This document shows, one piece after another, positions 5,433 to 38,138 of a stretch of DNA of 64,000 nucleotides; within the stretch, counting starts at the first letter, position 1; the number at the start of each line of letters is the position of its first letter. The notes under the pieces are model-generated. The model searched no databases. It worked only from the letters and a program-made list of their open reading frames with translations, and was not told the DNA's origin. The stretch comes from Deltaproteobacteria bacterium (lineage in GTDB: Bacteria > Bdellovibrionota > UBA2394). A program made the translations under genes and the position numbers. The stretch is from NCBI GenBank assembly GCA_017302715.1, contig JAFLCD010000012.1, positions 480-64,479 on the forward strand, in the 5' to 3' direction.

Positions 5433-5927
5433 TTAAAAAACAATGATCGCAGAAAGACTGGTTTCGATAGGATCTGAGTCTTTTTCAGTTCGAGAGATCA
5501 ATCTCTGACCGACATCCGCAAAAATCCCACAGCGCGCTGAAAAAAACCTTCCAAGGCCTGCGCGATAGGTAAATACGGGATTAAAGGAATTTCTTCTTCT
5601 CTCGATTCCCCCGCCGACTAAAATTCTAAAAGCATACGGATTAAAAATTTCGTAGAAAGCTACTGAGCCTCCGGCCGTCCATTTATACATCGGTGTCTTT
5701 TGTTTTCCCGTAAAAACAGTTTGCGACATCCACTCAAGCTCTCCGGTAATAAAAGCATCCCTTTGATTGGGTTGTAAAAAACTTAATCGCGCTCCGCCCA
5801 TCACTGCTGCATTATCTGACACATCCGAAAACTGATAACCAGCAACAGGCTCAAGAGAAAAGCCAGGCTTCACTTCAAAAGAAAAAGGCGCTGAAATGAG
5901 AGATAAAAAAGCTATCGAAGCAAACAT
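5433..5927 (-). CDS. Putative outer-membrane beta-barrel protein
   Basis: Signal peptide, alternating hydrophobic beta-strand pattern, C-terminal aromatic (F). Confidence 0.4.
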   Translation of the reverse strand: MFASIAFLSLISAPFSFEVKPGFSLEPVAGYQFSDVSDNAAVMGGARLSFLQPNQRDAFITGELEWMSQTVFTGKQKTPMYKWTAGGSVAFYEIFNPYAFRILVGGGIERRRNSFNPVFTYRAGLGRFFSARCGIFADVGQRLISRTEKDSDPIETSLSAIIVF

Positions 5928-5939
5928 GCCTCAGTTTAC

Positions 5940-6554
5940 TTATTTTCGAAGCTGAAGGGAATAAATCGGTACACCGGCTTGTAAAAATCTTCTTTGAAAT
6001 AAAGTTTTAGGCTCTGTTTCAAATAAATCGCCTTTTTGACTCAGTACAATAGGAAAAAATTCTCGCCTTGAGTTCTCGATTTGAAAAAATTCCCAATAAG
6101 ATCGACAATCCGAACGAAAACAAAATCGACCTCCTGGCTTTAAAATTCTATAGATCTGCTGAAAAAATTCTTTCGTCACCATTCGATGTTTTTCATGGCG
6201 ATCCTTTGGCCAAGGATCCGGAAACTGCATCCACACCTCATCCCAAAACTCAGCTGGAGAATCTTGAACGAAGGTCGGAACATCCCAAAAAATCACTCGC
6301 GATTGCAGAGATTCATTTCGCTGAAGCTTCTCGGCGGTCTTAAAAATTCGTTTGAATCGTTTGTCGACTCCCAGTCCCGCCATCTCAGGATGCAATTTTA
6401 AATATTCGCTTAAAAAATGTCCGTTGCCGCAACCCAAGTCTACAAACGAAGTTTTGCCCTCATAGATACTCCATAAGTTGGCGAGATCTTGCCCAACGAG
6501 AGCATGAGATTTAACTTTTTCAATATAATGATTACGCGCTTCGATAAAGGGCAT
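5940..6554 (-). CDS. trmB: tRNA (guanine46-N7)-methyltransferase
   Basis: SAM motif VDLGCGNGHFL and conserved FPDPWPKDRHEKHR box. Confidence 0.8.
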   Translation of the reverse strand: MPFIEARNHYIEKVKSHALVGQDLANLWSIYEGKTSFVDLGCGNGHFLSEYLKLHPEMAGLGVDKRFKRIFKTAEKLQRNESLQSRVIFWDVPTFVQDSPAEFWDEVWMQFPDPWPKDRHEKHRMVTKEFFQQIYRILKPGGRFCFRSDCRSYWEFFQIENSRREFFPIVLSQKGDLFETEPKTLFQRRFLQAGVPIYSLQLRK

Positions 6555-7323
6555 CGCCCACTCGTAGCATGGTTTTTTTGTCTACACCAGATGGAGCGCG
6601 CTCAATTAAAAGCAAAACCGAAGAACCCAGCTTAAAGGCTAAAAGTCGCTCGGCTTTTTGCACAGAATCCGAAAGTTTAGTCCAATGATCATAAGAAACT
6701 TCGCCTTTTTCGGAGTAAAGGCCTGAGACCGCCATCGCCCCTACGCAAATCATCAAAACTTGGCCGTAAGTTTCGGATTCCCATTTAAAAGTCAGCCGCT
6801 CATTTTCAGAAAATAAAAGCGGAGAAAGCCATCGACCTAAAGCGTTCACCGGCAAAAAATTTCCTCGATGCCTGCGAGCTTCAAGATTTCGTCCTTCGCA
6901 GGCGGCATGTACCCAATGATAATTTTTAGGCGCCAGATAAAAATTCCAAAACATTCCATTTTGAAAACGGCTTAAATCGAGCTCTTTAAAATTCTTCCAT
7001 TCATAATGAAGTTTTTTTACTTCTGTTCCGTCTGAGCGAAAAATCAAAGCCGGACCATCGACACATTTTCCCTCAATCGGACTGACTAAATTTTCCGAAG
7101 CTATTTGAAATCGAACCGTTCTTAAAAAAAACTCACCTAAAGTTTTAAACGAAGAAGTTTCCGGCCAATCAATTCCATACATTGATTTGAAAATCGCAAT
7201 GAATCTCTGATGAATCGTTTTTCCCCAGGGCCCATTCGCAATCAGCCAAACGGCTCGCGTGTGAAGAGGCGACCAAAGATAAACGAAAAAAAATCGGCAG
7301 GGAATTCTCAGCATAAGGTTCAA
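6532..7323 (-). CDS. psd: Phosphatidylserine decarboxylase proenzyme
   Basis: YLAPKNYHWVHAACEG (cf. LSPRDYHRVH), LFSENERL, and LGS(S/T) self-cleavage motif FKLGSSVL near C-terminus. Confidence 0.6.
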   Translation of the reverse strand: MNLMLRIPCRFFFVYLWSPLHTRAVWLIANGPWGKTIHQRFIAIFKSMYGIDWPETSSFKTLGEFFLRTVRFQIASENLVSPIEGKCVDGPALIFRSDGTEVKKLHYEWKNFKELDLSRFQNGMFWNFYLAPKNYHWVHAACEGRNLEARRHRGNFLPVNALGRWLSPLLFSENERLTFKWESETYGQVLMICVGAMAVSGLYSEKGEVSYDHWTKLSDSVQKAERLLAFKLGSSVLLLIERAPSGVDKKTMLRVGDALYRSA

Positions 7324-23732: not shown

Positions 23733-24043
23733 AGCCAAGTTTAAAATTACTTATAGGGATTATTGTATTTGTTATCGCGAGTTTTTTTATCGCAAGATTT
23801 TTCAATGAAAATGCCGAAACGGTTCAAGTGCAATTTTTTTATTGGAGAACCAGAGAAGTTTCTAAGGGCTTTTTCATCGGATTTGTTTTCTTAATCGGCG
23901 TTTTTGTCACCGCATTGCTTTCGTTTTCAACGATTGTCTCGAAATCGTTTGAAACGGCTCGCTTGCGCAGAGAAAATAAAGCCTTAAGAGCCCTTGTTGA
24001 AGCCAAAGGCGAAGACAAAAATATCTCGGAAAATGCAGTTTAA
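23729..24043 (+). CDS. LapA/YciS-like inner-membrane protein (DUF1049-like)
   Basis: Two TM segments then coiled coil RLRRENKALRALVEAKGE; ATGA overlap with HIT gene. Confidence 0.45.
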   Translation: MKPSLKLLIGIIVFVIASFFIARFFNENAETVQVQFFYWRTREVSKGFFIGFVFLIGVFVTALLSFSTIVSKSFETARLRRENKALRALVEAKGEDKNISENAV

Positions 24044-24107
24044 TTATATTTCATTCGCTTATATAAAGAACTCATAGAAATAGGGGGGGTAAAAAAGGAC
24101 GCTCCCT

Positions 24108-25517
24108 ATGTTGAACTCACTTATTCTTTCACTCTCTTTGATTGTCTCTGCTCCTTCCGTCGCTCCACTTCAGCCTGTTGATTGCAAGCAAATCGTTGCT
24201 GTCATTACTCCCGAACTCTCTCGTCCAAAACAAAAAACATTTATGGGTATCGTGGGCAAAACGGATGTTCCGCGCTACGACGTGAACCGTGAAGAGTTCC
24301 TCGTCTTAAAAGACATCCGAGATTTTATTTTATCCGATAAATTTAATATCACCCCGTTTTTGAAAGATCCAGCGACCGCTGTGGCGAGTGAAATTCAAGA
24401 AGCTCGAATTCAGCTTGCTGATCTTTTGGTAGCTAAACTTAATATTCCTTTTTCAGCTTATCGAAAAGCCGAACGAGCCTGGTTGATTGATGAGCAGGAT
24501 CTGCAAAGAAATCGAAAGAGAGATTTTATTGCGTTTATCAGTGCGATGAGTTCTTTAGATCAAACAAGGCAATCGCTTATTTCTCAATTTCGCGCGCAAA
24601 CCAGTTCGGACGCGAAAAATTTAAGTATTTCTAATGAAGGTCGAGAAGCCCTTTTTGTTCTCTATAGACGATCTTCGGTATCCAGAACTCCAGAGTCAGT
24701 AGAAAATTTTGTTCGATTTCTTCTCCAAGATAAAGAGATCGCGCGAAATGAATTAACTTTTCAAGAGGCTGATACGCTGAAATTTTTGAAAAATTCGATT
24801 GAAAATTATCCCATCGAAAAAGCGATTCAAAGACATCTTATGAGTGGCCAATCTGTGCAGGAATTTTCAAGAACTCTAGCTGCTCGATTAGAGGGTAAAG
24901 ATGGATGGCGAACAGCTAAAAAAGATCGAAAAGTTTTTGCTCGTATTTCAAGAGAGATGAAAGTTTTTGGAGGTTCTCATTACGATCGAATGCTTCGATT
25001 TGTTTATTTTATTTTTGAAAAACCATTTGATCCAAGTCAGGTTGATGCGAAAACACGAAAAAAATATCGTAAGATTGCTACGATTTTAGAAGATCAAATT
25101 CCTCGCGGATTTTTTGCATGGGGACATCCTATTCGAAGGTCAGCGAACTTGATCAAAGGTAGCGTCGAAGTGGGCGCCATTTTGGGAGTTGTCGGCGCGA
25201 TTGGAATCGGAGGATCTCATTTGGCAAATTGGGTAGGAACTCATTATCCGCAAAAACTACCTGAGTCTTTGGTTGCACCTTTGCAGGCTGCTCCTCGTGC
25301 TCAACAGATTTATAACTATCGATTGGATGCATTGGAAAAAATGGATCCTGTTATCGATTTTTCCCAGAAAAAATTGGAACCATGGATGGAAAAAGAATTC
25401 TGGCCGGTGTTGAACGAGGGTTATGGGATCGTTAAGAAAAGTGTAGAAGAGGGAATAGTGAATATAAACGAATCATTCACTCCAGCTCGTCAAACACATA
25501 CAACGAACCCACGGTAA
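24108..25517 (+). CDS. Secreted hypothetical protein (469 aa)
   Basis: Signal peptide; no family recognised; 3' end overlaps convergent pilin gene. Confidence 0.45.
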   Translation: MLNSLILSLSLIVSAPSVAPLQPVDCKQIVAVITPELSRPKQKTFMGIVGKTDVPRYDVNREEFLVLKDIRDFILSDKFNITPFLKDPATAVASEIQEARIQLADLLVAKLNIPFSAYRKAERAWLIDEQDLQRNRKRDFIAFISAMSSLDQTRQSLISQFRAQTSSDAKNLSISNEGREALFVLYRRSSVSRTPESVENFVRFLLQDKEIARNELTFQEADTLKFLKNSIENYPIEKAIQRHLMSGQSVQEFSRTLAARLEGKDGWRTAKKDRKVFARISREMKVFGGSHYDRMLRFVYFIFEKPFDPSQVDAKTRKKYRKIATILEDQIPRGFFAWGHPIRRSANLIKGSVEVGAILGVVGAIGIGGSHLANWVGTHYPQKLPESLVAPLQAAPRAQQIYNYRLDALEKMDPVIDFSQKKLEPWMEKEFWPVLNEGYGIVKKSVEEGIVNINESFTPARQTHTTNPR

Positions 25518-25968
25518 AACTTGAGGCGAAGCTTACGGTCCTTCTAAAAATACTGGTGATTCCATCTCCGTTGAGATCACCTTGAGCTTCACAATCTACA
25601 GAATTGGTGGCGGTGACAGTGGTTTGATAAGAGAATTGAATGGGGTCTGTAAAATTAAAAGTTAAATGAGCCCAATTTGGATCTACAGTAAAATCAACCA
25701 CTCTCTTATTTGCGACCGGCGGAAAATTAATAGGACCTACCGCAAGAAACGTAGTGTTTTTTGAATAGTATTCCACTTCACCTGTCGTTAATTTTGAAAC
25801 TCCTTGAACCGCCTCGGTGGTTTTAGCTCGTAAAATATATGTCTTATACATGCCAAGCGCTGTTGCCGCTAAAATAGAAATCATCAGAATAACCAACATA
25901 AGTTCAATCAAAGTGAAAGCTTTGCTCGTCGACCTAATAACGAATGACTTTATTTTCACGGCACACAC
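25477..25968 (-). CDS. Type IV pilin / pseudopilin-like protein with N-terminal methylation motif
   Basis: KA|FTLIELMLVILMISILAATAL prepilin motif (Ala instead of Gly at -1). Confidence 0.6.
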   Translation of the reverse strand: MCAVKIKSFVIRSTSKAFTLIELMLVILMISILAATALGMYKTYILRAKTTEAVQGVSKLTTGEVEYYSKNTTFLAVGPINFPPVANKRVVDFTVDPNWAHLTFNFTDPIQFSYQTTVTATNSVDCEAQGDLNGDGITSIFRRTVSFASSFTVGSLYVFDELE

Positions 25969-28186
25969 CCTTTAATCCTGATTTCTCGTCGTAAAGATAT
26001 AACCTTAGAATACCATAGGCTTTAAGTTTGGATAAGCTTTGCACGCATCGGCTCGTTAAAATGGAATCCGGAGCTGAGGCTATCCAGCCATCCGAGAGAA
26101 CAATTTTTGCTGTGTCTCCTTTTTGACGTATATTTTTTGCGGGCAAAATATCTTTTAGATCATCATTAGAAAGAAGATGAATTCCTTCTTCTTTTTTCAA
26201 AAATTCATCGAGATTTAAAAAGAGAAAAACTCCACCTGCAGCGATGGCTGTCCAGACGATAGTTCTCAATAAATAATATTGAGTTGATTTTACAGTTCTT
26301 GAAAAACGATCTTTCTTAATTTGAATATGGGCAAGACCTGCTAAGGCATTTGCGGCTTCTTCATTGCGATCATTATTTCGGAGCGCCATTTGATAAGCTT
26401 CGCGCGCTTGCGGAATCTGGCCGCGGCTGACATAGATGTGGCCTAAAAGAACCGGTCCCATATCTTGGGATGGGTTCTTTTTGCAGATATCTTCAAGCGA
26501 CTTCAGTGCTTTTTGCTCATTTGCTTCGTTCTTTTCTATTTGAGCTAATTTGAATTCGGCATAACAAGCGTAGGAGACATACTCAATTCCGCGAGGCCAA
26601 ACTTTTGCTGCCCCTTTAAATTTTTCGAGAGCTGTCTTGTAATTATGATTGGCCGAAAACTTAAGGCCTTCTCGAAAATAATCCTGAGCTTCTAAGAATT
26701 TTTTTGAATCTTGAGCGGAATCAGCTTTGAATTGCTTAATTGATTTTAAATATTCCGTTTTAAGGTCAGTGTCCGAAACGGTTTGATAAGCTTTATCAAT
26801 TTTAGAAAGCATATCATCCAGAATTCTTTTTACTTGGCCTGATAATTTGGAACCGTATCGATCAGGATGAAGTCGATAGCGGATGGTACGGTAGGACTCT
26901 TCAATTTCTTCGGTCTTCGATTGAGGAGTGATCTCGAGAATTTCAAAATAATTTTTTGAAAGAAGATCCATGTATTCGCTTTGAATTCTTTCAGCAATTT
27001 CTTTGGGTATTCTTTGTTCCTCTTTAAAATCTTTGGCGAAGTCAGTGGAAGGTTTGAAGTCGCCGGCTTCTTTTGTGCCTTCAGAAATTTGAATGAGTTC
27101 TAGATTCTCTAAAAGAAAGAATACTCGAAAAAGAATCTCATGATTGGATTCGGGCATCTTATTTAAAACTTCGCGAAGACTTTCTTTGGGCGATATCGAT
27201 TCAAGAAAGCTTTTGGAACCCGCATCCAAATTAAGCATCGGCAAAATTTGAAATGCCCTTTGAGAAAACCCGATATGAAAATTTTCTTTGGCTTTGAAAA
27301 AATCTTTTAGAAATTCTTTGGTGTAAATATCTCGATGGGATCTAAAAATAATCAGAAGAGGATTGAATTCGAGAGGGAGAATATACGCAGGTAAATCCTG
27401 TAAAGCTTGAAGCTCATATTCTCCGTCTTTCCAAAGACAGGTATTTACCAAAAGTCTGTAAGTGTGACGTCGAATACCTTCAAATAATTGATTTTTGGAG
27501 AGCGCTTCCATTTTGAGAAGCATCTGACCAAGTTGAAGTCCTTCTTCGACCATTTTCTTAGAAGCTTCGATTTGAATTTCGGGCGTAATAAGGCCCATCA
27601 TGACAAAAGACTGACCTAAACTTTCAGAGATGACGGTGGAGTGGGCGCCTACGGGAAAACCATTTTGAAAAAATATTTTTCTCTGGGCACTTTCTTTAGA
27701 AATCTGCAATTGACCAGTGAAAGCTTCGTTATAAGCGTCGAGCAATAATTTTTCGAAAGGGCGTTGGACTAAAAGCCCCTTTTTTTGAACGCTTTCATTT
27801 TTTGAAAACGATTTGCCGCTGATATTTGAAAGTAATTCATTGATATCAAATGGCTTCGTCCAATACGAATGCAGCCCATGCAAATTAATCAGCTGAGATA
27901 TTTGATTGGGATCTTTGTAGACTCCAGAAATGGCAACCATCTTTAAATTTTCACTGAGTTGATTTTCTTTAAGCTTTGTAAAAAGTTCGGCTCCCATCAC
28001 CTGGGGAAGCAGCATATCGCAGATCAAAAAATCAAAGGGAGATCCTGACGTATGAGCTTGAGAAATAGAATCAAAACCTGATTGCCCATCGAGCACGCTC
28101 TCGACATGAAAGCCTTCGAGGGAGAAGCGATCGCTTAAAAGTTTATTTAAATATTTATCGTCCTCGACGATAAGAACTTTTCCCAT
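25934..28186 (-). CDS. Multidomain signalling protein: N-terminal response-regulator receiver, central unknown region, DnaJ (J) domain, TPR repeats, C-terminal TM segment
   Basis: REC: VLIVEDD...FLICDMLLP...WTKPF; J domain: YFEILEITPQS...YRTIRYRLHPDRY; TPR-like repeats; hydrophobic stretch TIVWTAIAAGGVFLFL. Confidence 0.65.
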   Translation of the reverse strand: MGKVLIVEDDKYLNKLLSDRFSLEGFHVESVLDGQSGFDSISQAHTSGSPFDFLICDMLLPQVMGAELFTKLKENQLSENLKMVAISGVYKDPNQISQLINLHGLHSYWTKPFDINELLSNISGKSFSKNESVQKKGLLVQRPFEKLLLDAYNEAFTGQLQISKESAQRKIFFQNGFPVGAHSTVISESLGQSFVMMGLITPEIQIEASKKMVEEGLQLGQMLLKMEALSKNQLFEGIRRHTYRLLVNTCLWKDGEYELQALQDLPAYILPLEFNPLLIIFRSHRDIYTKEFLKDFFKAKENFHIGFSQRAFQILPMLNLDAGSKSFLESISPKESLREVLNKMPESNHEILFRVFFLLENLELIQISEGTKEAGDFKPSTDFAKDFKEEQRIPKEIAERIQSEYMDLLSKNYFEILEITPQSKTEEIEESYRTIRYRLHPDRYGSKLSGQVKRILDDMLSKIDKAYQTVSDTDLKTEYLKSIKQFKADSAQDSKKFLEAQDYFREGLKFSANHNYKTALEKFKGAAKVWPRGIEYVSYACYAEFKLAQIEKNEANEQKALKSLEDICKKNPSQDMGPVLLGHIYVSRGQIPQAREAYQMALRNNDRNEEAANALAGLAHIQIKKDRFSRTVKSTQYYLLRTIVWTAIAAGGVFLFLNLDEFLKKEEGIHLLSNDDLKDILPAKNIRQKGDTAKIVLSDGWIASAPDSILTSRCVQSLSKLKAYGILRLYLYDEKSGLKGVCRENKVIRY

Positions 28187-28213
28187 TCGTATGTAGTTTA
28201 ACGAAAAAGTCTT

Positions 28214-31200
28214 TTAAAATCGAAGAGATATCGGAGTTCCTACGGCGTTTGAAGAAGTGTTAACAATTTCGAGTGAATCATTGCTTTGACACAATACGTA
28301 AAGATACTTCACCGCAGTGATCGTAATTTCCATCATCTTGGTGGGACCACATCCCGAAGTGAGACTGACCGTAGCGGCAACAGCATCGGTACTGAGATTG
28401 AGTACCGTTAAGCTATCATCCGAAAAATTAGAAATAAAAGTTTTGGTGGCGGAGTCGACAGCATAAGCATGCAGCGGCATGGATCCTGTGGCGACATCGC
28501 TGGAAGACCCGGATTCGTTAAAAATCCGAACGACATCAGCTCCTGGATAAGTGACATAAGTTTTAAGATAAGTCGTTCCCACAGAGGTTGAAATGTGAAG
28601 AGGAGAGGCCGAGAGCGCAAGATTTGTAGTTAGACGAAATCCCGAAGTAAAATTGGTGTACATCGATTTTGTAGACGGACTAAGGGCATAAAGCACTGCC
28701 GACGTTGGATTATAAACGGCTTCTCTAAGTCCAAAGTAAATCAAACTGTCGGTTGAAGTTACGGCATTAGTTGTTCCGTTAATCGTAGAAATAGTTGTGG
28801 AGCCTTCATGTACGACGGACACCGCATTAGTCGAAGGATTCACTGCAACGTCATATGGATCTGTCGACACACTGACATGCGAAATCGCAGCATTCGTCGC
28901 CGAGTTAAAGATGCTCACCGAATTTGATTTCATATTGGCGACATAGAGTTTGCTATTGGCGGTGCTTACGGCCATGGCCATGGGACGTTTTTGAGTAGAA
29001 AGAAATCCAATCGAAGCAAGATCTCCGTTGGTATCGAGGCCAAGTACCGAGATGCTATCGCTTGAACTACAGAGCGCGAACAATTTTGAATTGGTAGTGT
29101 CGAGTGCCAATTCAGTGGGGGAATCGCAGACAGAATATATGCTGAGTGCTGAGGTAGAAGCATTGAGAATTCCGATGGCGTTGATCGAGCGAAGAGAAAC
29201 ATAAATGCGACCTTTGGCTGTCCAAGAAACAATATCGCTTGCCGTATTATTCAGCGCAGAGGCAAGACTCTCGCGTTGATGAAGAGCGCTGATGCGTTGA
29301 ACGACAGGTTTAGAAAAATCAGCCATCCATACCATTTCGGATCCATCGAATGCTGTTACAGCTGGATCCACATCGATGGGGAGTGTCTGATTTGCAAAAG
29401 TAGTGGATGACATATTGGCTATCGGAAAAATTCCTACAGATTTTTTAGAGGGGTAGTATGTAAAAATATTTGAAGAAGATGAAACGCCCGAAGAAAAAAC
29501 TCTGCTGAAAGGAGAGAGAGTTTTGCTTTCTCCATCTGAATTTACAAGAGCAGTTTCATTGAGAAGTCCTGCGATGACTTTATTTCCGTTGCCGCTCAGA
29601 AGATGGGGTGAACTTGAGAGAGTTGCATCCGTACTGGTTGTTGGCGTAACCGTTGAGAAAGACATTCCGTTCATGCTCGATGCGATGGCGCCGGTGGTTT
29701 GAAGTGCAATGTCTGTAAAACTTCCGGGCAAAGTATGAGTCGCTTGGACTGCCATATTCGAAGCGCGAAGAGCGACTACTTTATTGCTGCCGCCCACATA
29801 CAAAGTGGCGGGAGTGTCCGCCGATTGATAAATAATTTTTTTAGGCGTGATGCTGAGAGCGGTATTGCTTACAAAAGCTTCGGATCCTGAAGTGATATCA
29901 ATCGTCGTAACAGACTGAGAGGTCTCATTGACCGCCCAAAGTCGATTCGCGGTCGCGTTGAAATCAAAATGAACAGGCCGAGTTTGAGTCGAGAGGTTCG
30001 TAACGGCATTGCTTGCAAGATTGATGACCGATAGTGAATTGGATCCTCGATTCAAAACGTAGAGACGATTCGTGCGATAGCCGATTTGAACGGGAGATGT
30101 CTGCACATTGAAATGTCGTAAGCGCCAATTAGAAGAGCTGAGTTCACTAAGTGAATACGCTGTATTCGCAGCTGTTGAAACAAAATGCATCACACTTGTG
30201 GATTGAGCGGCTATGGAATCAATGGACTGGGGTTGATAGAGAGTGTCTGAGATGGCTTGAGTTGTAAGATCGACAATACTTATGGCGTTGCCGGTATTGC
30301 TGACAAGCACTGCAGAATCCAAAGCTCCGTAGTGGCCGATATCGTTCATCACGACCGGTAAAGTAATCGTCGTGGTCGTAAAAGTATGAGTGGGATTAGA
30401 GGCGATGGCTGTTTTATGAAGAATAAGTTTTCGATCGGATTGCATCACGGCTACAAAACGATTGGTTCCGTCTGAACCCACGAGCATCTTGATAGGATTT
30501 TCTCCGGCAGAAATAGATTTTACAAAGACATCGCTTGTGTCGTAAATATTTACGAGTTTGTCTGAAGGGCAAAACACATAGCGGTATCGTGAAGCCGATT
30601 CAAAATCTCTCATCATTTGCACAGGAGATCGGCAGGTCGAGAAAGTCGTCGAAGAAGTGAAGCCTGTATTGTAGTGACGAATATAATCATTTCCAAAAGT
30701 CGTAGTGGCAACTCCAATCGTATGATTATTATTCGATTGAATCGTCACAAAAAGTTCTGAAGAGTCGAGATCGTAAAGTGGTTTTCCAAATTGAGCGTGA
30801 CGAGATTCGCTCATCGTTTCCGCCGCTGTCAAAGCACTCATGGTCGAGCCTTGATAAGATCGCAAAATAAGTCCGGTGGCATTTTGGTAGCCGACAAAGA
30901 TCGTGGGATCTGCGGCGGTTGTGGATTGAATCCATTGAGGAGACGCAATCGATGCAGAAAGTGCCGAAGAGCAAAGAGTGGTGGTGTTGGGTGTGAGCGT
31001 ATAGGAGTAAACGGTATTTGCTTTTTTATCGGCGACAATGAGTCGATACGTTGTTCCCGAAGCGGATTCGGCTATATGAATATCGCTGATTTCTTGAAAG
31101 CCTGTGCAAGAAAGACTGCTGATCACGGGAACGCCAGATACGTTTGTTCCGTAGTAAATTTTGTTGCGAGCTTGATTTGTAAAAACAAATTCAGTGCTCG

Positions 31201-31453
31201 TATCTCGCTTCATATAGAATAAACTGCGCGGACCCACCGCCACATTTTCTGGAAGTTCGGATAAAATCAGATCGCGATTGGCGATATCGGTCGCACGAAT
31301 AGAAGAAACGGTAGAAGTTTTTGAAGAGAAAATAAAAACACGGGAAGTAGCACCGCCGCGAACTTGAAGGTCACCGGTTCCGATCAGTGACGGACCTTGA
31401 GGCATGACCGCATCTACGTGTCCGACGAGGGCAAAGAGAATGGCAAGCAGCAT
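28214..31453 (-). CDS. Large (1079 aa) Ser/Thr-rich secreted surface protein with YVTN-type beta-propeller repeats
   Basis: Signal peptide; repeated ~40-aa units (KLYVANMKSNSVSIFNSATNA..., PYDVAVNPSTNAVSVVHEGSTTIS...). Confidence 0.6.
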   Translation of the reverse strand: MLLAILFALVGHVDAVMPQGPSLIGTGDLQVRGGATSRVFIFSSKTSTVSSIRATDIANRDLILSELPENVAVGPRSLFYMKRDTSTEFVFTNQARNKIYYGTNVSGVPVISSLSCTGFQEISDIHIAESASGTTYRLIVADKKANTVYSYTLTPNTTTLCSSALSASIASPQWIQSTTAADPTIFVGYQNATGLILRSYQGSTMSALTAAETMSESRHAQFGKPLYDLDSSELFVTIQSNNNHTIGVATTTFGNDYIRHYNTGFTSSTTFSTCRSPVQMMRDFESASRYRYVFCPSDKLVNIYDTSDVFVKSISAGENPIKMLVGSDGTNRFVAVMQSDRKLILHKTAIASNPTHTFTTTTITLPVVMNDIGHYGALDSAVLVSNTGNAISIVDLTTQAISDTLYQPQSIDSIAAQSTSVMHFVSTAANTAYSLSELSSSNWRLRHFNVQTSPVQIGYRTNRLYVLNRGSNSLSVINLASNAVTNLSTQTRPVHFDFNATANRLWAVNETSQSVTTIDITSGSEAFVSNTALSITPKKIIYQSADTPATLYVGGSNKVVALRASNMAVQATHTLPGSFTDIALQTTGAIASSMNGMSFSTVTPTTSTDATLSSSPHLLSGNGNKVIAGLLNETALVNSDGESKTLSPFSRVFSSGVSSSSNIFTYYPSKKSVGIFPIANMSSTTFANQTLPIDVDPAVTAFDGSEMVWMADFSKPVVQRISALHQRESLASALNNTASDIVSWTAKGRIYVSLRSINAIGILNASTSALSIYSVCDSPTELALDTTNSKLFALCSSSDSISVLGLDTNGDLASIGFLSTQKRPMAMAVSTANSKLYVANMKSNSVSIFNSATNAAISHVSVSTDPYDVAVNPSTNAVSVVHEGSTTISTINGTTNAVTSTDSLIYFGLREAVYNPTSAVLYALSPSTKSMYTNFTSGFRLTTNLALSASPLHISTSVGTTYLKTYVTYPGADVVRIFNESGSSSDVATGSMPLHAYAVDSATKTFISNFSDDSLTVLNLSTDAVAATVSLTSGCGPTKMMEITITAVKYLYVLCQSNDSLEIVNTSSNAVGTPISLRF

Positions 31454-31522
31454 AAAGCTTTATCGGAAATTTTTTAGAAAAAATAAGAGTTCTAAAAATG
31501 CTGCTGCGCTTTCAAAAGCTTT

Positions 31523-31921
31523 CTAAGGAGAAACATTCAGAGTTTTCCAATTTTGAATAGCTTGTAAAAGTGAGTCAGAATTAGTGCTGCAATTGTTCCA
31601 ACAGTTGTGACCGCCTTGAACCTTCAAATAAATTCGAGAGAGTTGAGGCGTATCAAAATCCACTAAGCCTGCGGAGTTCATAATCGTATTGAAAGAAGAT
31701 TGAATATCATTGGGGAGAGCAAAGAAAGGAGCTTGAGTGGTCGCATGACAAGAGGAGCATCGATCTTTTAATATAGGATAAAGTGTCTGGCTAAAGTGTG
31801 TGGCTGATGCTGTCGCCGATTCTGTTTGCAATTGTGGAATATCTAAACTTCCGCCGCAAGCTGAAGCAAGGAGGAGCAAACTTCCCAAGGCAAAATAAGA
31901 ATGTGAAAATATTTTTTTCAT
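31523..31921 (-). CDS. Lipoprotein with single CxxCH motif, PSCyt1 (DUF1549 N-terminal 'planctomycete cytochrome c')-like
   Basis: Lipobox LLASAC; LYPILKDRCSSCHATTQ matches the F..I.PIL...C..CH pattern of PSCyt1. Confidence 0.5.
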   Translation of the reverse strand: MKKIFSHSYFALGSLLLLASACGGSLDIPQLQTESATASATHFSQTLYPILKDRCSSCHATTQAPFFALPNDIQSSFNTIMNSAGLVDFDTPQLSRIYLKVQGGHNCWNNCSTNSDSLLQAIQNWKTLNVSP

Positions 31922-33447
31922 TACGTTGCCTTTTTAAAGATCAAATATTTTGAATAGTTTGCCCCTTCAAAAGGATCTGATCCATTTCCTCCCGGTAAAC
32001 TTTTTAATTCAGACTCGCGACCTGAGAGCGCCAAATAATTAAGCGCCACTGCTTTTGCCATATTCGTTGGAGAATTATTTGCGGTGATTAAATAAGAGAT
32101 ATCAACTCCTGAAGTAGTGAAAGCTCCGACTTGTCGTCCGCTGTTTTGCACTTGAGCTCCGCGAGTCGCGCCCGGAATATAACTGAAAACGGCGCAGACC
32201 GATGCCGCACCATTATCGCCAGGTCGACTTAAAAATCCGTCCCCTCCAAAAGTAGGGTTCTGCGCATTGCCGAGATTGCTGACCGATGTGTCCGCTGCGC
32301 TTGTTCCCATTCCACCGTCTGTGATCACGTGAATGAAAAGAGGTTTTCCGATTCTCGCGGCGTAGTGGAGCATTTTTCCAACTTCAGCTCCTGCTTGAAA
32401 GCCTTTTTGTCGTGTTTCGGTTGCCGTATTATCGTGTGAGTCATATCCGCCCAATGTGATTGTTCCAACACCAGAAAAATTTTGCATCACGAGTCGTGTC
32501 ACCACCGCACTCGCGTTATTGGCGAGATTTGTCGTGGCGTAAGCCACAGCCAAATCATCAGTAGATGAAATGGGATCGTTTGGAAAAATTTGTGTGGGTT
32601 GAAAATTGCTGAGTAAAGAATCGGCGTTGATGTAACCACACTGAACCAGCTCATCGATTTGTTGAGTAAGATTCATATTACGAAAATCTCGAAGTTTGGC
32701 GCTGCTCATTTGAGCTGTCGCGGTTCTAATTTTTTGCATTCGTGCAGCGCCCAAAGCGTCAATTAAACCACCGCGATCGACAATAGATTGAGCGCCTCTT
32801 CGATTGGCGACTCGGATAGGACGATAAGCAGAAACTTCTGAACCTACGGCTGCCGAGGCATTTCCACCCGAAAGGGAGCCTTCGGTTCCGATAGAAGGAA
32901 GAAGTTGCCCTGATCTTCCTGCGGCTGAAACAAGATAGCCTGCATTGTGTGCATTGATGCTCGTGTCGTCGTTAGATGTTCCACAGAGAATGAATCCGTC
33001 GACAGAATTTCTAAATTGCGAAGGCAAGAAAGCATTTAGGCCAGCAAGAAAACTGGAGTCGGGATGCATCGCCACTCCGTAAGTGGTGTCGGGTGCGATC
33101 GCAGCGCCATTTCGAATCGCTCCGTATTTTAAATTCGCAGGAATTCCGGAGACGATGTTGCTTGAAAGAAAATCCATTTGTCCGCCCCGTCCTCCGGGAA
33201 CAAAATCTTGAGCCATGGGGTAACCACCCGCGAGATCCAAAGTGATAAAAGCAATTTGATTGCTCATCGACGCATTCGAGCAGCTTGCAGGTGTGGCTGC
33301 GTAAACGTCTTTGAATAAATAAGAAAAAATATTGGGCATTAAAATGCTACCCACGCCGGCCATTAATCCCTGCGCAATAAAATCACGGCGAGTCACCGGC
33401 TTTTTGTGATTCTCATGTTGAAATATTTTTTTCTTCTGTTGTTTCAT
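31921..33447 (-). CDS. TAT-exported DUF1501-like (sulfatase-fold) protein
   Basis: Twin-arginine signal VTRRDFIAQGLMAG; IAFITLDLAGGYPMAQDFVP and GGYDSHDN resemble DUF1501 WLSGG...D.FDPKP / GGWDTH motifs; alternative start 33498. Confidence 0.55.
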   Translation of the reverse strand: MKQQKKKIFQHENHKKPVTRRDFIAQGLMAGVGSILMPNIFSYLFKDVYAATPASCSNASMSNQIAFITLDLAGGYPMAQDFVPGGRGGQMDFLSSNIVSGIPANLKYGAIRNGAAIAPDTTYGVAMHPDSSFLAGLNAFLPSQFRNSVDGFILCGTSNDDTSINAHNAGYLVSAAGRSGQLLPSIGTEGSLSGGNASAAVGSEVSAYRPIRVANRRGAQSIVDRGGLIDALGAARMQKIRTATAQMSSAKLRDFRNMNLTQQIDELVQCGYINADSLLSNFQPTQIFPNDPISSTDDLAVAYATTNLANNASAVVTRLVMQNFSGVGTITLGGYDSHDNTATETRQKGFQAGAEVGKMLHYAARIGKPLFIHVITDGGMGTSAADTSVSNLGNAQNPTFGGDGFLSRPGDNGAASVCAVFSYIPGATRGAQVQNSGRQVGAFTTSGVDISYLITANNSPTNMAKAVALNYLALSGRESELKSLPGGNGSDPFEGANYSKYLIFKKAT

Positions 33448-33451
33448 AAAA

Positions 33452-34138
33452 TTAAAAATAAATAACAGGGCCACTTCCAAGAGCAGCTGCACACACACCG
33501 TTCATGGCATTCTTTAAAGTCGTATTATTATCTGCAAATCCTGTAGCGAGATCGCCCGATAGAGTGACCAAACTATTGATGGCGTTTTGTCGACTAACGG
33601 TGGGAGCAATTTCTTCTCCCCAAAATCTTTTAAGCATAAATTCGGCAAAGGTATATTTTTGCGTCGAGCTCCCCAATAAGTCAGAATATTTTTTTGCACC
33701 AAAAGTACCAGTGGTTGTTCCAAAATCAGTGCCGTTGAAAAAATTAATTCGGTTAGTTTCTGAATTAATGAGTTCAATACAAAATTGAGAGGCAAAATTC
33801 ATAATCGATATCAGCTGATTGGCTTGCAGCGATTGAATATCATTTGAAGTGGGTAAACTGGGTTTGTTTGTATTGTAATAGACATTTAAATTTCCGTTAT
33901 TGCTAGCGGGATTAATTCCTGTTGCTGACACCATGCTTGCAAAAATCTGTTCGTAGTTTTTTACTCCAACACCTTGTAAGCCTGTCGAGTCATCCGCAGT
34001 TGAATTATTAGAAGAAATGGAATTCACCGTCATTTGACATCCGCTCATCCCCAAAGTGATTAACGTCATCGAGGAGATGAAAGTGGTGGAGTAAATAAAT
34101 TTTATAAAAATATCCTTCATTTTTATTTTCCAAAACAT
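33452..34138 (-). CDS. Hypothetical secreted/lipoprotein (228 aa)
   Basis: N-terminal hydrophobic signal with Cys; no family recognised. Confidence 0.35.
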   Translation of the reverse strand: MFWKIKMKDIFIKFIYSTTFISSMTLITLGMSGCQMTVNSISSNNSTADDSTGLQGVGVKNYEQIFASMVSATGINPASNNGNLNVYYNTNKPSLPTSNDIQSLQANQLISIMNFASQFCIELINSETNRINFFNGTDFGTTTGTFGAKKYSDLLGSSTQKYTFAEFMLKRFWGEEIAPTVSRQNAINSLVTLSGDLATGFADNNTTLKNAMNGVCAAALGSGPVIYF

Positions 34139-35439
34139 AATTTTGAGGTTTCTGCAAAGAGGGCTCTCATATTATAAGCACCCGAAGCCGAATAATTTGA
34201 ATACTCAGGAAATCCCGTTTCAAATTTTCTGGCGATGGTGATCAATAAATTTGTTTCAGCTGCGCTAGGAGCTCTTAAGCAAATTCGGCTAAAAACTTTT
34301 GTCGCCATATTTTCTGAGAAAGCTTTAGTGGCGGCGAGCATTCGTCCGAAGCTTTTGATTCCTTTTCCAGAAGTGAGAGAAGGAGTATTCGCATCTGTTC
34401 TCCATCCTAGATTTGCATTAGGACCTGTCGACCAAAAATTGAGCCACGTATTATCTTTTAAGCGATAGCCGCTTGGAAAAACCGTATCTTGTCTAAATTG
34501 TTTCGTCTGAACGGTTCGTCGGTAAGTAATGATTTCGCTCGGAAAATCGATATAGGCGAAAGCTCCCGCAAGCGCATCGAGATTTCCGTGACAACCCATA
34601 CAAGTATTAAGAAAAGTTTGAGAGTTTCCTCCAGGAAGTCGGTCAACGTCCTGACGAACACGTGCATCCGAAACATTGGCGTCGTGAAGCTGCGATAAAT
34701 CTTTTCCTAAAAATCCCCAGAACGCATAACGCACGGGTCTTCGATTTGTTCCTGCCGAATAAAATTCTAATCCCCACTGACGAGTGGTGAGTAAACCCGA
34801 AACATCTTCTGCATTGAGAGGAGAGTCTTGAGTCAGAGCAAAAATATCACTTTGACGTCTAGCCATCAGCAAGTTTGGCCAATTAGAAAAGCGCTCCAAA
34901 TCTGAGTAATGAAAAAAATCTCTAAATAAAGTATTCGGATTTGCAGCTCCCGGGATCACTAAGAGTGGACGAATTTTTCCATCTTGAAAATTATCTACGG
35001 GTTGTCGAACTAAACCTGGGTTCGTTTGTAAACTTTCGAGTCCTGTATAAATCACATCTCCATAAAGAACTTGATCGAAGGATTGATTGTTGATGATGAG
35101 GCCAACAATTGTTGCCGTGAAATCATTCAAAGCTAAGTCATTGGTTTGGGCTTTATTAGAAAGTGGATTAAATAAATTTTTAATCGTCAGTTTATAAAAA
35201 TTAACATCATTCATCGCAATGAATGCCGCTTGGGCTGTTTGACCATTTTGAAGAAAAGTCGTTAAGCTTTGTAAAGTTGAAAGGCTAGGAGATACGCCCG
35301 TAAATCGAGAGTAAAGTCTTTGAGCCTGATCTTGCGCGTTTTCGGTATCCAAATTGGCGGCAGAAATTTCGGCGCGCGCGACAAAAGCCACGTAAAAAAG
35401 AATGAGTAGTTTTTGGAGACACCCACGCATGCCTCTCAA
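34123..35439 (-). CDS. Secreted protein with single CxxCH motif (planctomycete DUF15xx/PSCyt-like)
   Basis: Signal peptide; FLNTCMGCHGNLDALAGAFAYIDF resembles the C..CH..D..G.A.E.FD block of planctomycete cytochrome-like DUF families. Confidence 0.45.
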   Translation of the reverse strand: MRGMRGCLQKLLILFYVAFVARAEISAANLDTENAQDQAQRLYSRFTGVSPSLSTLQSLTTFLQNGQTAQAAFIAMNDVNFYKLTIKNLFNPLSNKAQTNDLALNDFTATIVGLIINNQSFDQVLYGDVIYTGLESLQTNPGLVRQPVDNFQDGKIRPLLVIPGAANPNTLFRDFFHYSDLERFSNWPNLLMARRQSDIFALTQDSPLNAEDVSGLLTTRQWGLEFYSAGTNRRPVRYAFWGFLGKDLSQLHDANVSDARVRQDVDRLPGGNSQTFLNTCMGCHGNLDALAGAFAYIDFPSEIITYRRTVQTKQFRQDTVFPSGYRLKDNTWLNFWSTGPNANLGWRTDANTPSLTSGKGIKSFGRMLAATKAFSENMATKVFSRICLRAPSAAETNLLITIARKFETGFPEYSNYSASGAYNMRALFAETSKLCFGK

Positions 35440-35570
35440 AAATGCAAATATTAGGCCGCTGAGATTTTTTACTAAGCCATCGATATTATTGATGAAAAAT
35501 TCAAGACATTTCTAAAACTTTGGCATTTCTGCCCGGCCCCAAGCAATTTTCGTCGCGCAAGATTTGCACA

Positions 35571-35618
35571 GGGGGTCGGGTCGGAAAGGTGCCAGGTCAG
35601 CTTTCCGACCCGACCCCC
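35571..35618. repeat. GC-rich palindromic element, copy 3 (short variant, 15-bp stem)
   Basis: ggggtcgggtcggaaaggtgccaggtcagctttccgacccgacccc; same arm/loop sequence as copies at 2874 and 4845; sits 5 nt past stop of OMP gene. Confidence 0.6.
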
Positions 35619-35623
35619 AAAAA

Positions 35624-36775
35624 TCAAAAATGATATTTCAAATTCGCGTGGGCGCGGAGGTAACTCAAATCGATTTTGGCGTCGGTATAAGTTTGCGAAA
35701 TTCGAGTGCTCGATGCGCTTGAGCCTTTTCCTTTGGCCGTCATCATCTCTGCAGTTAAATCCGACGACCAATGATCAGCCCATCGATATCCAAAACTTCC
35801 GGAAAAAATAAGTGGAATACTATCCGCCGAAATTCCCGGCGACTGAGTTCCATCTTCCGAAAATCCGGCCCCAAGAATAGCCGTCGCGCCTGCTGAATAC
35901 ATAAAATCTTCGGCGAATTTTCCTTCAACCTTAAAAGGAATCGCAATTCCCTGAGTCGTCGTTTCAACAAAGAGCAAAGTATTTTGAACCGGATTTAAAT
36001 CGGGCGAAACATCGAACATATAAAATCCAAGTCCGAGTCCTAAACGCACATAAGAATTTGCTGAAGAATAAATTTCATATTTAAAAAATGAATTCGCCGA
36101 AAAAGTATGTGTATTAATTTGATAACCTGCACCTCGCACTTCAGCGACTTCAAATTGAGGACCCAACGTTAATCGATACATTCCGTAATGATATGCACTT
36201 TCGAAAGTCCAAAACGCAGCGCGATTCCAAAGTGTCATTTGCAAAAGCGAAAGATCAAGGGCAAGTCCCGTACTCAATCCAGAAAAGTCATATTTATAAA
36301 TGGTGTTGCGCGAGCCCGATTGCAAGCCCGTCAATTTGTATTGAAGTTTTTGCATTCCTAAATCGAGATGAATCGAACCTTTGTCAGAAATTCGTCCCGA
36401 CCAAAGCCAAAGATAGCGATCTGATTCGAGCGGATTTTTTTCTGCAGATTTAGTACCAGCAACAGATGGTTGCATAATCGGAGCCGCTCTTTCGAGCGCG
36501 AGTTCGCCCTTCACCCATCCACGAAAATTTAAACCCTCTTTTGAAATAACTTCGACTTCGTACCAAAGTCCATCCGAGCGCAGAAAAACAACTTTATCCT
36601 CTAAAGTGATCTCCTTTAATACAGCCGCGTCCGCAGCAGGAGAGACGCGCAACTCTCGCGAATAAGTTGTACCCGGCGGCGGCTTGAGCGGACTCAGTCC
36701 CGTCGGAGAAGCCGATTGCGCGTAGAGAAGTGGAGTACCTAAAATAGAAAGGATTAGATAAAGTCTAAAAAGCAT
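35624..36775 (-). CDS. Putative outer-membrane beta-barrel protein with N-terminal SH3b-like domain
   Basis: Signal peptide, SH3-like segment (DGLWYEVEVISKEGLNFRGWVKGELA), beta-strand pattern, C-terminal ...KYHF. Confidence 0.4.
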   Translation of the reverse strand: MLFRLYLILSILGTPLLYAQSASPTGLSPLKPPPGTTYSRELRVSPAADAAVLKEITLEDKVVFLRSDGLWYEVEVISKEGLNFRGWVKGELALERAAPIMQPSVAGTKSAEKNPLESDRYLWLWSGRISDKGSIHLDLGMQKLQYKLTGLQSGSRNTIYKYDFSGLSTGLALDLSLLQMTLWNRAAFWTFESAYHYGMYRLTLGPQFEVAEVRGAGYQINTHTFSANSFFKYEIYSSANSYVRLGLGLGFYMFDVSPDLNPVQNTLLFVETTTQGIAIPFKVEGKFAEDFMYSAGATAILGAGFSEDGTQSPGISADSIPLIFSGSFGYRWADHWSSDLTAEMMTAKGKGSSASSTRISQTYTDAKIDLSYLRAHANLKYHF

Positions 36776-36817
36776 GGTAGTTCATTATAAGAATTAACGC
36801 AGAGGAAAACAAAACGA

Positions 36818-37453
36818 TTGTCTGAAAGTTTTAGCGATTACCAGCCCATACCAACAAACGGTCCCCACTCACATCTTCTTCCTCGGGACATCGGTTGGAT
36901 CGAAGTGATCACAGGTAGTATGTTTTCTGGAAAAACCGAAGAGCTTCTTCGGCGAATTAAACGTTCCGTGATCGCGAAACAGCCTACGATTTTATTTAAA
37001 CCTAAACTCGACACTCGATATTCGACCGATCACGTCGTCTCCCACGATCAAGTGCGCTATCCATCGGTTGCGGTCAAAGATCCGCACGATATGATTCGCC
37101 TCGCGAAAGATTCTCTCGTTGTTGGAGTCGATGAAGCTCAGTTTTTTCCCGTCAGTTTAGTAGAAGTTTGTAATGAACTCGCCATGTCCGGAAAACGAGT
37201 TATTGTGGCCGGTCTCGATCAAGATTATCGAGGTCAGCCTTTTCATCCGCTTCCCGAACTTTTGGCGATTGCCGAATATGTGACCAAGCATCTTGCGATC
37301 TGTGCAAAATGCGGAAATCCAGCGACTCGCAATCAACGTCTCGTCGCTGCAGGCGACCAAGTTCTCTTGGGCTCGCTTGAATCTTACGAAGCGCGCTGCC
37401 GAAAATGTTTCGAACCTCCTCAAGAGGCTCGAGCAGTCGCTGCACAATCTTAA
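36818..37453 (+). CDS. tdk: Thymidine kinase
   Basis: P-loop GSMFSGKTEEL; C-terminal zinc ribbon CAKCG...CRKC; ~22-aa N-terminal extension. Confidence 0.85.
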   Translation: MSESFSDYQPIPTNGPHSHLLPRDIGWIEVITGSMFSGKTEELLRRIKRSVIAKQPTILFKPKLDTRYSTDHVVSHDQVRYPSVAVKDPHDMIRLAKDSLVVGVDEAQFFPVSLVEVCNELAMSGKRVIVAGLDQDYRGQPFHPLPELLAIAEYVTKHLAICAKCGNPATRNQRLVAAGDQVLLGSLESYEARCRKCFEPPQEARAVAAQS

Positions 37454-37511
37454 ATTATGTTCTGTTCATGAATTCATATTTAATTAATGAGTAAATAGAA
37501 GGAGAAATCGT

Positions 37512-38138
37512 ATCGCTGACTTTGAAAAAAAAGATAATATTCGCGTTAACCATCAAATTCGCGCGGCCAAAATTCGAGTTGTTCTCGAAGACGGCGCTCA
37601 ATTGGGAGTCTTAAGTCCTTATGAGGCGTTGAAGGAAGCGGAGAAGCGGGGTCTTGATCTCGTTGAAATTTCTCCCAAAGCGTCGCCACCGGTTTGTAAA
37701 CTGATGGACTTCGGAAAATTCAAATATGAATTGAAGAAAAAGGCTCAAGGCTCCAAAAAAGCTAACGCGGGTAATGTGGTTAAAGAAGTTACTCTTTCTC
37801 CTCAGACAGATGTGCATGACCTCAACTTTAAGATGAAAAACTCCCAAAGATTTTTGGAAGAAGGGCATCGAGTAAAAGTCATGGTTAAATTTCGTGGTCG
37901 CGAAATGGCCCACCCCGAAATCGGTCGAAAGCAGATGGAGAGAATCATGGAGTCTCTTAAGGAATTCGGAGTGCCAGAGTCCGATCCAAAGATGGAAGGC
38001 CGGATGCTGATGGCGGTTTTTGTTCCCATGGCTCAAGCCTCTAAAATAGCTGCGAAAACCAAGACTCCAGAACCGGTTAAGGCAAAACCAGCTGACCCCT
38101 TAAAGTCTAAATTGATCGTGCCCCGTAAGCAGGGTTAA
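37512..38138 (+). CDS. infC: Translation initiation factor IF-3 (non-AUG start, likely AUC/AUU-class)
   Basis: Frame upstream of ORF-track start encodes ADFEKKDNIRVNHQIRAAKIRVVLEDGAQLGV matching IF3 N-terminus; in-frame ATC at 37512 is 8 nt after GAAGGAGA. Confidence 0.8.
   Translation: MADFEKKDNIRVNHQIRAAKIRVVLEDGAQLGVLSPYEALKEAEKRGLDLVEISPKASPPVCKLMDFGKFKYELKKKAQGSKKANAGNVVKEVTLSPQTDVHDLNFKMKNSQRFLEEGHRVKVMVKFRGREMAHPEIGRKQMERIMESLKEFGVPESDPKMEGRMLMAVFVPMAQASKIAAKTKTPEPVKAKPADPLKSKLIVPRKQG

Follow-up and report, generated by a model that had tools for sequence, protein, structure and literature searches.

The window analysed here is a stretch of 64,000 nucleotides (nt) from contig JAFLCD010000012.1 of assembly GCA_017302715.1, a metagenome-assembled genome labelled 'Deltaproteobacteria bacterium' (locus tag J0L93_10260), and our subject is a 10-kb run of seven genes on its minus strand, g1 to g7 (Table 1). 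The run had been read as a single seven-gene unit with a new operon architecture, linking proteins with CxxCH motifs to a giant propeller protein, a signalling protein and a pilin. Both the table of open reading frames (ORFs) and direct reading place the seven ORFs where they had been reported, head-to-tail and with gaps below 100 nt. The packing is indeed tight enough for co-transcription, with no terminator between the CxxCH/Tat (twin-arginine translocation) module and the propeller. Close same-strand packing is common in bacteria, and alone it is no proof of one functional unit. We conclude that the run is probably a juxtaposition of two evolutionarily independent units rather than one dedicated seven-gene system. 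In the best-supported reading, Unit A (g1–g4) is a mobile cassette that stands on its own, with translational coupling among its four genes for exported proteins, and is lodged in a variable slot upstream of Unit B (g5–g7); Unit B is specific to a clade of Bdellovibrionota-like lineage, with g6 translationally linked to g7 and g5 optional.

Table 1. Coordinates of the seven genes, the two units and the adjoining features in the window
Feature	Position	Strand	Length	Remarks
Unit A (g1–g4)	31523-35439	-		
Unit B (g5–g7)	25477-31453	-		
g1	34123-35439	-	438 aa	
g2	33452-34138	-	228 aa (longest ORF)	likely start 34120
g3	31921-33498	-	525 aa (longest ORF)	likely start 33447, giving 508 aa
g4	31523-31921	-	132 aa	
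g4–g5 gap	31454-31522	-	69 nt	AT-rich; seam between Units A and B
g5	28214-31453	-	1079 aa	
g6	25934-28186	-	750 aa	
g7	25477-25968	-	163 aa (longest ORF)	likely start 25959
SH3-OMP gene	35624-36775	-	383 aa	SH3 + probable outer-membrane beta-barrel protein; weak SH3_3 match; C-terminus LKYHF
Hairpin	35575-35618	-		between SH3-OMP and g1
ORF beyond g7	24108-25517	+	469 aa	no Pfam/NCBIfam match
ORF antisense within g5	30791-31222	+	143 aa	Arg/Cys-rich; most likely a spurious frame

The exact form of several junctions depends on the start codons chosen. The single base shared by g3 and g4 (TAATG at 31921) stands as first described; the two overlaps reported at 34123-34138 and 25934-25968 hold for the longest ORFs and shift with the likely starts. 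Thus g1 and g2 overlap by 16 nt or, if g2 begins at the ATG that gives a clean lipoprotein signal, are 2 nt apart, and g2 and g3 overlap by 47 nt or, from the MKQQ start of g3, leave a gap of 4 nt. Between g5 and g6 there are 27 nt. The overlap of g6 with g7 is 35 nt, or 26 nt from the second GTG of g7, which has AAGGG upstream.

The evidence for two units comes from the places where their genes occur in other genomes. At least 184 relatives of g3 were found in a scan with one genome per species, and 80 loci were fetched; the 66 with at least 4.2 kb upstream of the g3 homolog form our informative set, drawn from Bdellovibrionota, Myxococcota and many Gammaproteobacteria. g1 is present in all 66, on the same strand as g3 and at most 5 kb from it, and tblastn recovers the g4 domain in 65 and g2 in 57; we refer to this set of genes as module A. 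Orthologs of g5, g7 and the SH3-OMP gene occur in none of these loci (0/66), and the sole match to g6 is confined to the REC domain and falls in a PhoB encoded on the opposite strand (one locus). The layout of the window, g1-g2-g3-g4, is kept in ten loci of Bdellovibrionota/Oligoflexales type. Another 55 loci, mostly from Gammaproteobacteria and Myxococcota, have g1, then a fusion protein of ~800 aa that joins g4, a Laminin_G_3 module and g2, and then g3. For the nearest g3 homolog (61% identity), the gene neighbours differ from those in the window. In GCA_964622975.1, module A adjoins pst/phoBR, and g6-g7 lie on a separate contig without the module. In four loci (L006, L028, L063, L075), g1 and g2 occur again a few kb further downstream, as tandem or partial duplications of the cassette.

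Unit B has a setting of its own. The counts that follow rest on ~16 distinct g6 loci, the window and metagenome loci among them. The window and its relatives share a backbone that reads pheST-rplT-infC-tdk, SH3-OMP, a variable slot, g6-g7, and lapA-HIT-sppA-rpsA-cmk-accA-miaA-mutL. The SH3-OMP gene, a backbone gene upstream of the cluster that was not counted among the seven, has orthologs with 30–40% identity at the same position beside tdk (L086-L092, L098, L100-L103). g6-g7 is kept in all ~16 loci, and g7 follows g6 in each locus long enough to show it. The slot is empty in eight loci, with SH3-OMP next to the regulator, and holds only a propeller gene in three. A g1-type four-gene module occupies it in four: in the window, the sole case of module A, and in L085, L090 and L091, where the module is of a second kind (type B). 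Slot contents range from nothing to the propeller alone, module A with propeller, type B with two oxygenases and propeller, a further module (B') with an oxygenase and type B, and type B alone. Six of the loci have the propeller: the window and L085, L086, L094, L095 and L097, where the orthologs of g5 are 42–50% identical to it and lie directly upstream of the g6 ortholog.

The original prediction had named comparison of gene order among relatives as a check, with absence of synteny from every related genome as the result that would count against it. Synteny is not absent, since g5-g6-g7 recurs in five other loci and g6-g7 in all ~16; what recurs is only part of the run. The combination of g1–g4 with g5–g7 was seen in 0/66 module A loci, none of which has the propeller or the pilin, and the order of the seven genes is therefore not conserved. 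Here Unit A fills the slot that separates SH3-OMP from g6, with possible read-through into Unit B, but the two units would not form an obligate system.

The type B module encodes a CxxCH lipoprotein of 385–457 aa, a small lipoprotein, a Tat protein of 491–510 aa and a CxxCH protein with a tail of cysteine, transmembrane (TM) helix and basic residues. It is not detectable by BLAST from type A. Profile comparison by hhalign aligns the type A and type B forms of g1 with 96.9% probability (E 1.5e-10), and by this measure the first gene of type B is homologous to g1 and type B is a distant paralogous module. The same comparison of the type A and type B Tat proteins is not significant (2% probability, with only three type B sequences). 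Type B modules are accompanied by paralogs of a 2-oxoglutarate (2OG)-Fe(II) oxygenase that are 48–54% identical (L085 441-1178 on the plus strand and 5822-6556 on the minus strand; L090 4879-5610 on the plus strand), and in L085 one copy lies on either side of the module, the two inverted relative to each other. The last of the four module proteins (L085 4970-5815; L090 4093-4869 and 9212-9952; L091 6452-7219) has at its C-terminus a G-C-G-like motif followed by a TM helix and a stretch of basic residues, an arrangement that resembles Cys-containing C-terminal sorting signals of MYXO-CTERM-like type.

Signals for transcription were sought at the borders of the units. Directly after the SH3-OMP stop lies a perfect 18-bp GC-rich hairpin (-42.7 kcal/mol, z -7.83; 0/200 shuffles fold equally well). 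It has no U-tract and so is not a canonical intrinsic terminator; it is likely to be a transcript end or a stabiliser, and therefore g1 probably starts a new unit. The g4–g5 gap shows no terminator-like site and folds no better than its shuffles (z 0.44), so that transcription may continue from Unit A into Unit B. In a promoter and terminator scan the number of sites was not above that in shuffles, and none fell in the key gaps. In sequence, the gap upstream of the propeller is unlike its counterparts in L085 and L086, and an Rfam search of 24000-38000 gave zero matches. Judged by spacing and signals, co-transcription of g1–g7 is plausible.

Several observations weigh against a clean separation of the two units. 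Without a terminator between g4 and g5, Units A and B may well share a messenger RNA in this genome. Modules with the g1 superfamily (type B) stand at the same slot in three other genomes, which exceeds what random insertion would lead one to expect, and in L090 and L091 they come within 41–48 nt of g6. In 38 gammaproteobacterial loci (among L016-L083), a conserved divergent operon on the opposite strand, ~0.5–6 kb upstream of g1, encodes a ~900-aa PD40/HZS_alpha propeller, an SH3+OMP (outer-membrane protein) barrel, a second OMP barrel, Redoxin and DUF3570, so that the classes of neighbour seen in the window, a large propeller and an SH3+OMP barrel, also adjoin module A there. Finally, the enzymatic and heme-binding roles that we ascribe to Unit A are read from fold and motifs. 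Together with the common strand, with gaps of at most 69 nt and with the g1-superfamily module that lies immediately upstream of the propeller or g6 in four of the ~16 loci, the first three of these points favour the view that the seven genes, perhaps with SH3-OMP, are one co-transcribed envelope system comprising a pilus-linked regulator/J-protein, a surface propeller and periplasmic heme and alkaline-phosphatase (AP)-fold enzymes, perhaps serving surface or prey sensing and envelope remodelling. We nonetheless regard a single system as unlikely. The slot is empty in eight of the ~16 g6 loci and holds only the propeller in three more; orthologs of g5, g7 and SH3-OMP are missing from all 66 module A loci; and the two units are unlinked in GCA_964622975.1. 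The argument from the same neighbours in two phyla is one of architecture only, because the gammaproteobacterial propeller shows no sequence similarity to g5 and the two SH3-OMP proteins align in profile comparison over the SH3 domain only (58% probability). A surface-sensing or predation role for the seven genes, as proposed in the original prediction, is speculation.

It is quite improbable, in our view, that in this clade the slot is a dedicated docking site which has repeatedly taken up interchangeable periplasmic heme/AP-fold modules (A, B, B') and S/T-rich propellers, and that these combine into a modular, pilus-coupled envelope system. If it were, contact signalling through a phosphorylated membrane J-protein would control an extracytoplasmic redox/hydrolase module, with possible relevance to surface or prey recognition. 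We consider it just as improbable that the slot is a permissive insertion hotspot amid conserved housekeeping genes, and that module A, type B, the 2OG-Fe(II) oxygenases and the propeller are unrelated cargo, gained or lost independently and without functional tie to g6-g7 or among themselves. In favour of this idea, slot content is highly variable among the relatives, module A acts as a cassette in many genomic contexts, and beyond the pilin gene the window has what looks like another insertion of its own: the 469-aa ORF is missing from all relatives, where lapA comes directly after the pilin, and it converges on the pilin gene with a 41-nt overlap of the two 3' ends. Against it, the propeller, in the six loci that have it, lies at most 45 nt upstream of g6 like a true operon partner, all cargo except one oxygenase gene in L085 is on the g6 strand, and the gene tables of the relatives show no integrase, transposase or flanking repeat close to the slot.

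Under the two-unit reading, the proteins of Unit A can be considered as a set. g1, the first gene of module A, encodes a secreted protein with the motif CMGCH, whose C280, C283 and H284 are invariant among 35 aligned homologs. Neither g1 nor g2 of the window has any Pfam match, even at E<=10. Sub-threshold matches to PSD2 (DUF1585) are seen in 22 of the 35 g1 homologs (best E 8e-5, in L077, with 22.2 bits against a cut-off of 25.8) and to PSCyt3 (DUF1588) in 14 (best E 0.025), with occasional matches to PSCyt2/PSD5; no member of the g1 family reaches the gathering score of the PSCyt3 or PSD2 model. This pattern indicates that g1 is a remote homolog of PSCyt3/PSD2 proteins and not a member of the family. 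g2 is a small lipoprotein (lipobox LGMSGC) that corresponds to the C-terminal part of the fusion proteins of Gammaproteobacteria and Myxococcota (e.g. L077 7522-9948). g4, a lipoprotein with CSSCH, corresponds to their N-terminal part, a small cytochrome-c-like domain that here stands free. Its CSSCH aligns with the conserved CxxCH of the fusions; g4 gives weak matches to cytochrome c551/Haem_bd, the fusions to Cytochrome_CBB3, Haem_bd and Cytochrom_C. A Laminin_G_3 module is present in 23/23 fused proteins examined. The CxxCH motifs first noted in g1 and g4 are thus both conserved, as in the heme-attachment sites of c-type cytochromes, and both proteins are putative heme binders. In Rheinheimera pacifica (L077 3675-6298), exbB-exbD-exbD-tonB lies directly upstream of the module homolog on the same strand, and ExbBD/TonB sets are found near the module in 12–13 further loci.

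g3 carries a Tat signal (RRDFI) and has a fold like that of the sulfatase/alkaline-phosphatase superfamily. It had been labelled DUF1501 (PF07394), a family that we take to belong to a clan with an alkaline-phosphatase/sulfatase-like fold; the label has no counterpart at the sequence level, where g3 gives no match at the gathering score, and the resemblance is confined to the fold and to the twin-arginine signal. Searches of g3 against Pfam and NCBIfam give no family at all, even at E<=10. In 27 family members only the Tat-signal model is matched, with DUF1501 and DUF1552 at 0/27 (E<=1); the fetched loci held no further Tat-type ORF usable as a DUF1501/DUF1552 reference. The family is a large one: a word-indexed search returned 140 homologs, none with a Pfam domain, and a profile of 27 homologs matches 1625 clusters at 50% identity. 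The same profile finds no relative among Protein Data Bank (PDB) sequences, and tblastn of g3 against plasmids gave zero matches. Invariant in the family are D71, D160-D161-T162, D336-x-H338 and D377. These would lie at core strand ends or a helix N-terminus, where AP-type enzymes hold their metal ligands and nucleophile, and they are candidate metal and nucleophile residues of a putative enzyme. Six homologs (P0009, P0017, P0028, P0036, P0093, P0096) are named 'general secretion pathway protein GspF' in public records; the name is almost certainly an annotation error that has spread, since the g3 family has no similarity to that polytopic protein of the type II secretion system.

We suggest that g3 would be a periplasmic enzyme, a hydrolase or transferase that depends on metal and uses a Thr as its nucleophile. 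Its partners would be the heme-c-binding g1 and g4 and the lipoprotein g2, its substrate an envelope or imported glycan or ester, and the reaction would probably include a redox step. DUF3570, ApbE and thioredoxin together have been described as a flavinylated system for extracytosolic electron transfer (Meheust et al. 2021, PMC8238504). ApbE is close to gammaproteobacterial module A in 21 loci, and a periplasmic redox-linked role of the module is supported because these copies adjoin such a system.

For the proteins of Unit B, the domain calls made from the sequence alone have largely been borne out. g5 is an S/T-rich (26.6% S+T) multi-propeller protein of the YVTN/lactonase type with a hydrophobic N-terminus; it matches TIGR02276 in three stretches (70.1 bits, cut-off 27.85) and Lactonase (E 2.7e-11). 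REC, J (DnaJ) and tetratricopeptide repeat (TPR) domains in g6 are confirmed by Pfam, which adds a PATAN domain. The order is REC (residues 4-122), PATAN/DUF4388 (151-279), J domain, TPR, one TM helix (~639-660) and a C-terminal alpha/beta domain of ~85 aa, with scores of 53.8 bits for Response_reg (cut-off 30.2), 42.5 for DUF4388 (PF14332; cut-off 25) and 35.2 for the J domain (PF00226; cut-off 27.8). There are 27 g6 orthologs with the REC-PATAN-DnaJ-TPR architecture (26 full-length), at 35–50% identity. Across 15 orthologs, the REC residues D9/D10, D57, S87 and K111 never vary, and the J-domain motif HPD (H440-P441-D442) hardly does (>=90%). In an AlphaFold2 model of g6 (confidence, pLDDT, 84.3) the TM helix is long and the C-terminal alpha/beta domain small, and hydropathy peaks at residue 639; a Foldseek search with the model returned receiver domains alone and left the C-terminal domain unmatched. 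In g7 the pilin motif is likewise confirmed, by N_methyl (24.3 bits, cut-off 21.2) and TIGR02532 (22.2 bits, cut-off 16.3), and in a profile comparison its family aligns with N-terminal helices from the structures of major T4a pilins (E 6e-13). The class III signal of type IV pilins has G at -1, F or M at +1 and E at +5, with a hydrophobic alpha-1 helix. E5 is invariant in the family, but the predicted cleavage site of the window protein, KA|FTLIE, has Ala at -1 versus Gly (G|F) in 6/7 orthologs, and g7 is best called type IVa pilin-like.

By analogy with cyanobacteria, g6 may regulate a pilus. PATAN is an output domain that binds PilB1/PilC in Synechocystis (10.1101/2021.06.11.447907), and DnaK1/DnaJ3 interact with active type IV pilus motors in Nostoc (PMC9239167). 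Phosphorylation of the REC domain of g6 would then control both the binding of PATAN to the type IV pilus motor and the recruitment of DnaK by the J domain at the inner membrane, and the assembly or use of a g7-containing pilus would be tuned. What we propose for g6, at the pilus motor and with DnaK, is thus drawn from what its domains do elsewhere.

Overall, the reading as one seven-gene operon finds little support, and the interest of the locus lies in the un-annotated module A family and in the REC-PATAN-J fusion. Module A is best compared with the planctomycete-type PSCyt/PSD proteins (Studholme-type domains), which are paired with DUF1552 or DUF1501 proteins. As in those pairs, a secreted CxxCH protein adjoins a Tat-signal protein of ~450–520 aa. 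PSCyt proteins often carry Laminin_G_3 modules, and their pairs with Tat partners are of unknown function (He et al. 2017, Verrucomicrobia, PMC5615132). The Laminin_G_3 modules in module A fusions and the weak PSD2/PSCyt3 matches of g1 homologs extend the likeness. Unlike those pairs, no member of module A reaches a Pfam gathering score, g3 is neither DUF1501 nor DUF1552, the CxxCH/PSD parts are spread across two or three genes and follow another order, and the module is found mainly in Bdellovibrionota, Myxococcota and Gammaproteobacteria, not in the PVC (Planctomycetes-Verrucomicrobia-Chlamydiae) phyla. By these sequence comparisons, module A is a divergent, un-modelled relative of the PSCyt/PSD and Tat-partner pairs. 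Being a large family without a Pfam or NCBIfam model, it extends such systems well beyond the PVC phyla.

With enzymes of the AP superfamily (sulfatases, nucleotide pyrophosphatases/phosphodiesterases (NPP), PafA/PhoK phosphatases and phosphoethanolamine transferases) g3 has only 8–15% identity; it lacks the CxPxR sulfatase motif and, unlike them, is always accompanied by partners with heme motifs. Gammaproteobacterial module A resembles the DUF3570/ApbE/thioredoxin-like clusters in its neighbouring Redoxin, DUF3570 and ApbE genes, whereas the module in the window adjoins none of these and the association is seen in other phyla only. The flavinylated-redox neighbourhood offers a starting point for a class of periplasmic proteins that has long lacked an assignment.

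g6, for its part, is like the PatA-type (PATAN-REC) regulators PixG, PixE and TaxP of cyanobacterial pilus phototaxis in having PATAN and REC, both above threshold, and in that its gene adjoins a pilin gene. It differs from them in order, with REC before PATAN (PatA has an N-terminal PATAN and a C-terminal REC), in its additional J domain, TPR, TM helix and periplasmic domain, and in lying outside any Che-like cluster. Among proteins that couple DnaK to envelope machines are the membrane-anchored DjlA of Escherichia coli and SglK of Myxococcus xanthus. With these and with DnaJ3/DnaK1 of Nostoc, g6 can be compared for its J domain with an intact HPD, its membrane anchor and its pilus context, but in g6 the J domain is fused to a receiver and PATAN in one polypeptide, a fusion of which we know no characterised example. 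With its own pilin, g6 would join two activities shown separately in cyanobacteria, the binding of PATAN to the motor and the action of DnaJ/DnaK there, and it is a compact candidate for studying pilus regulation in predatory-type bacteria.

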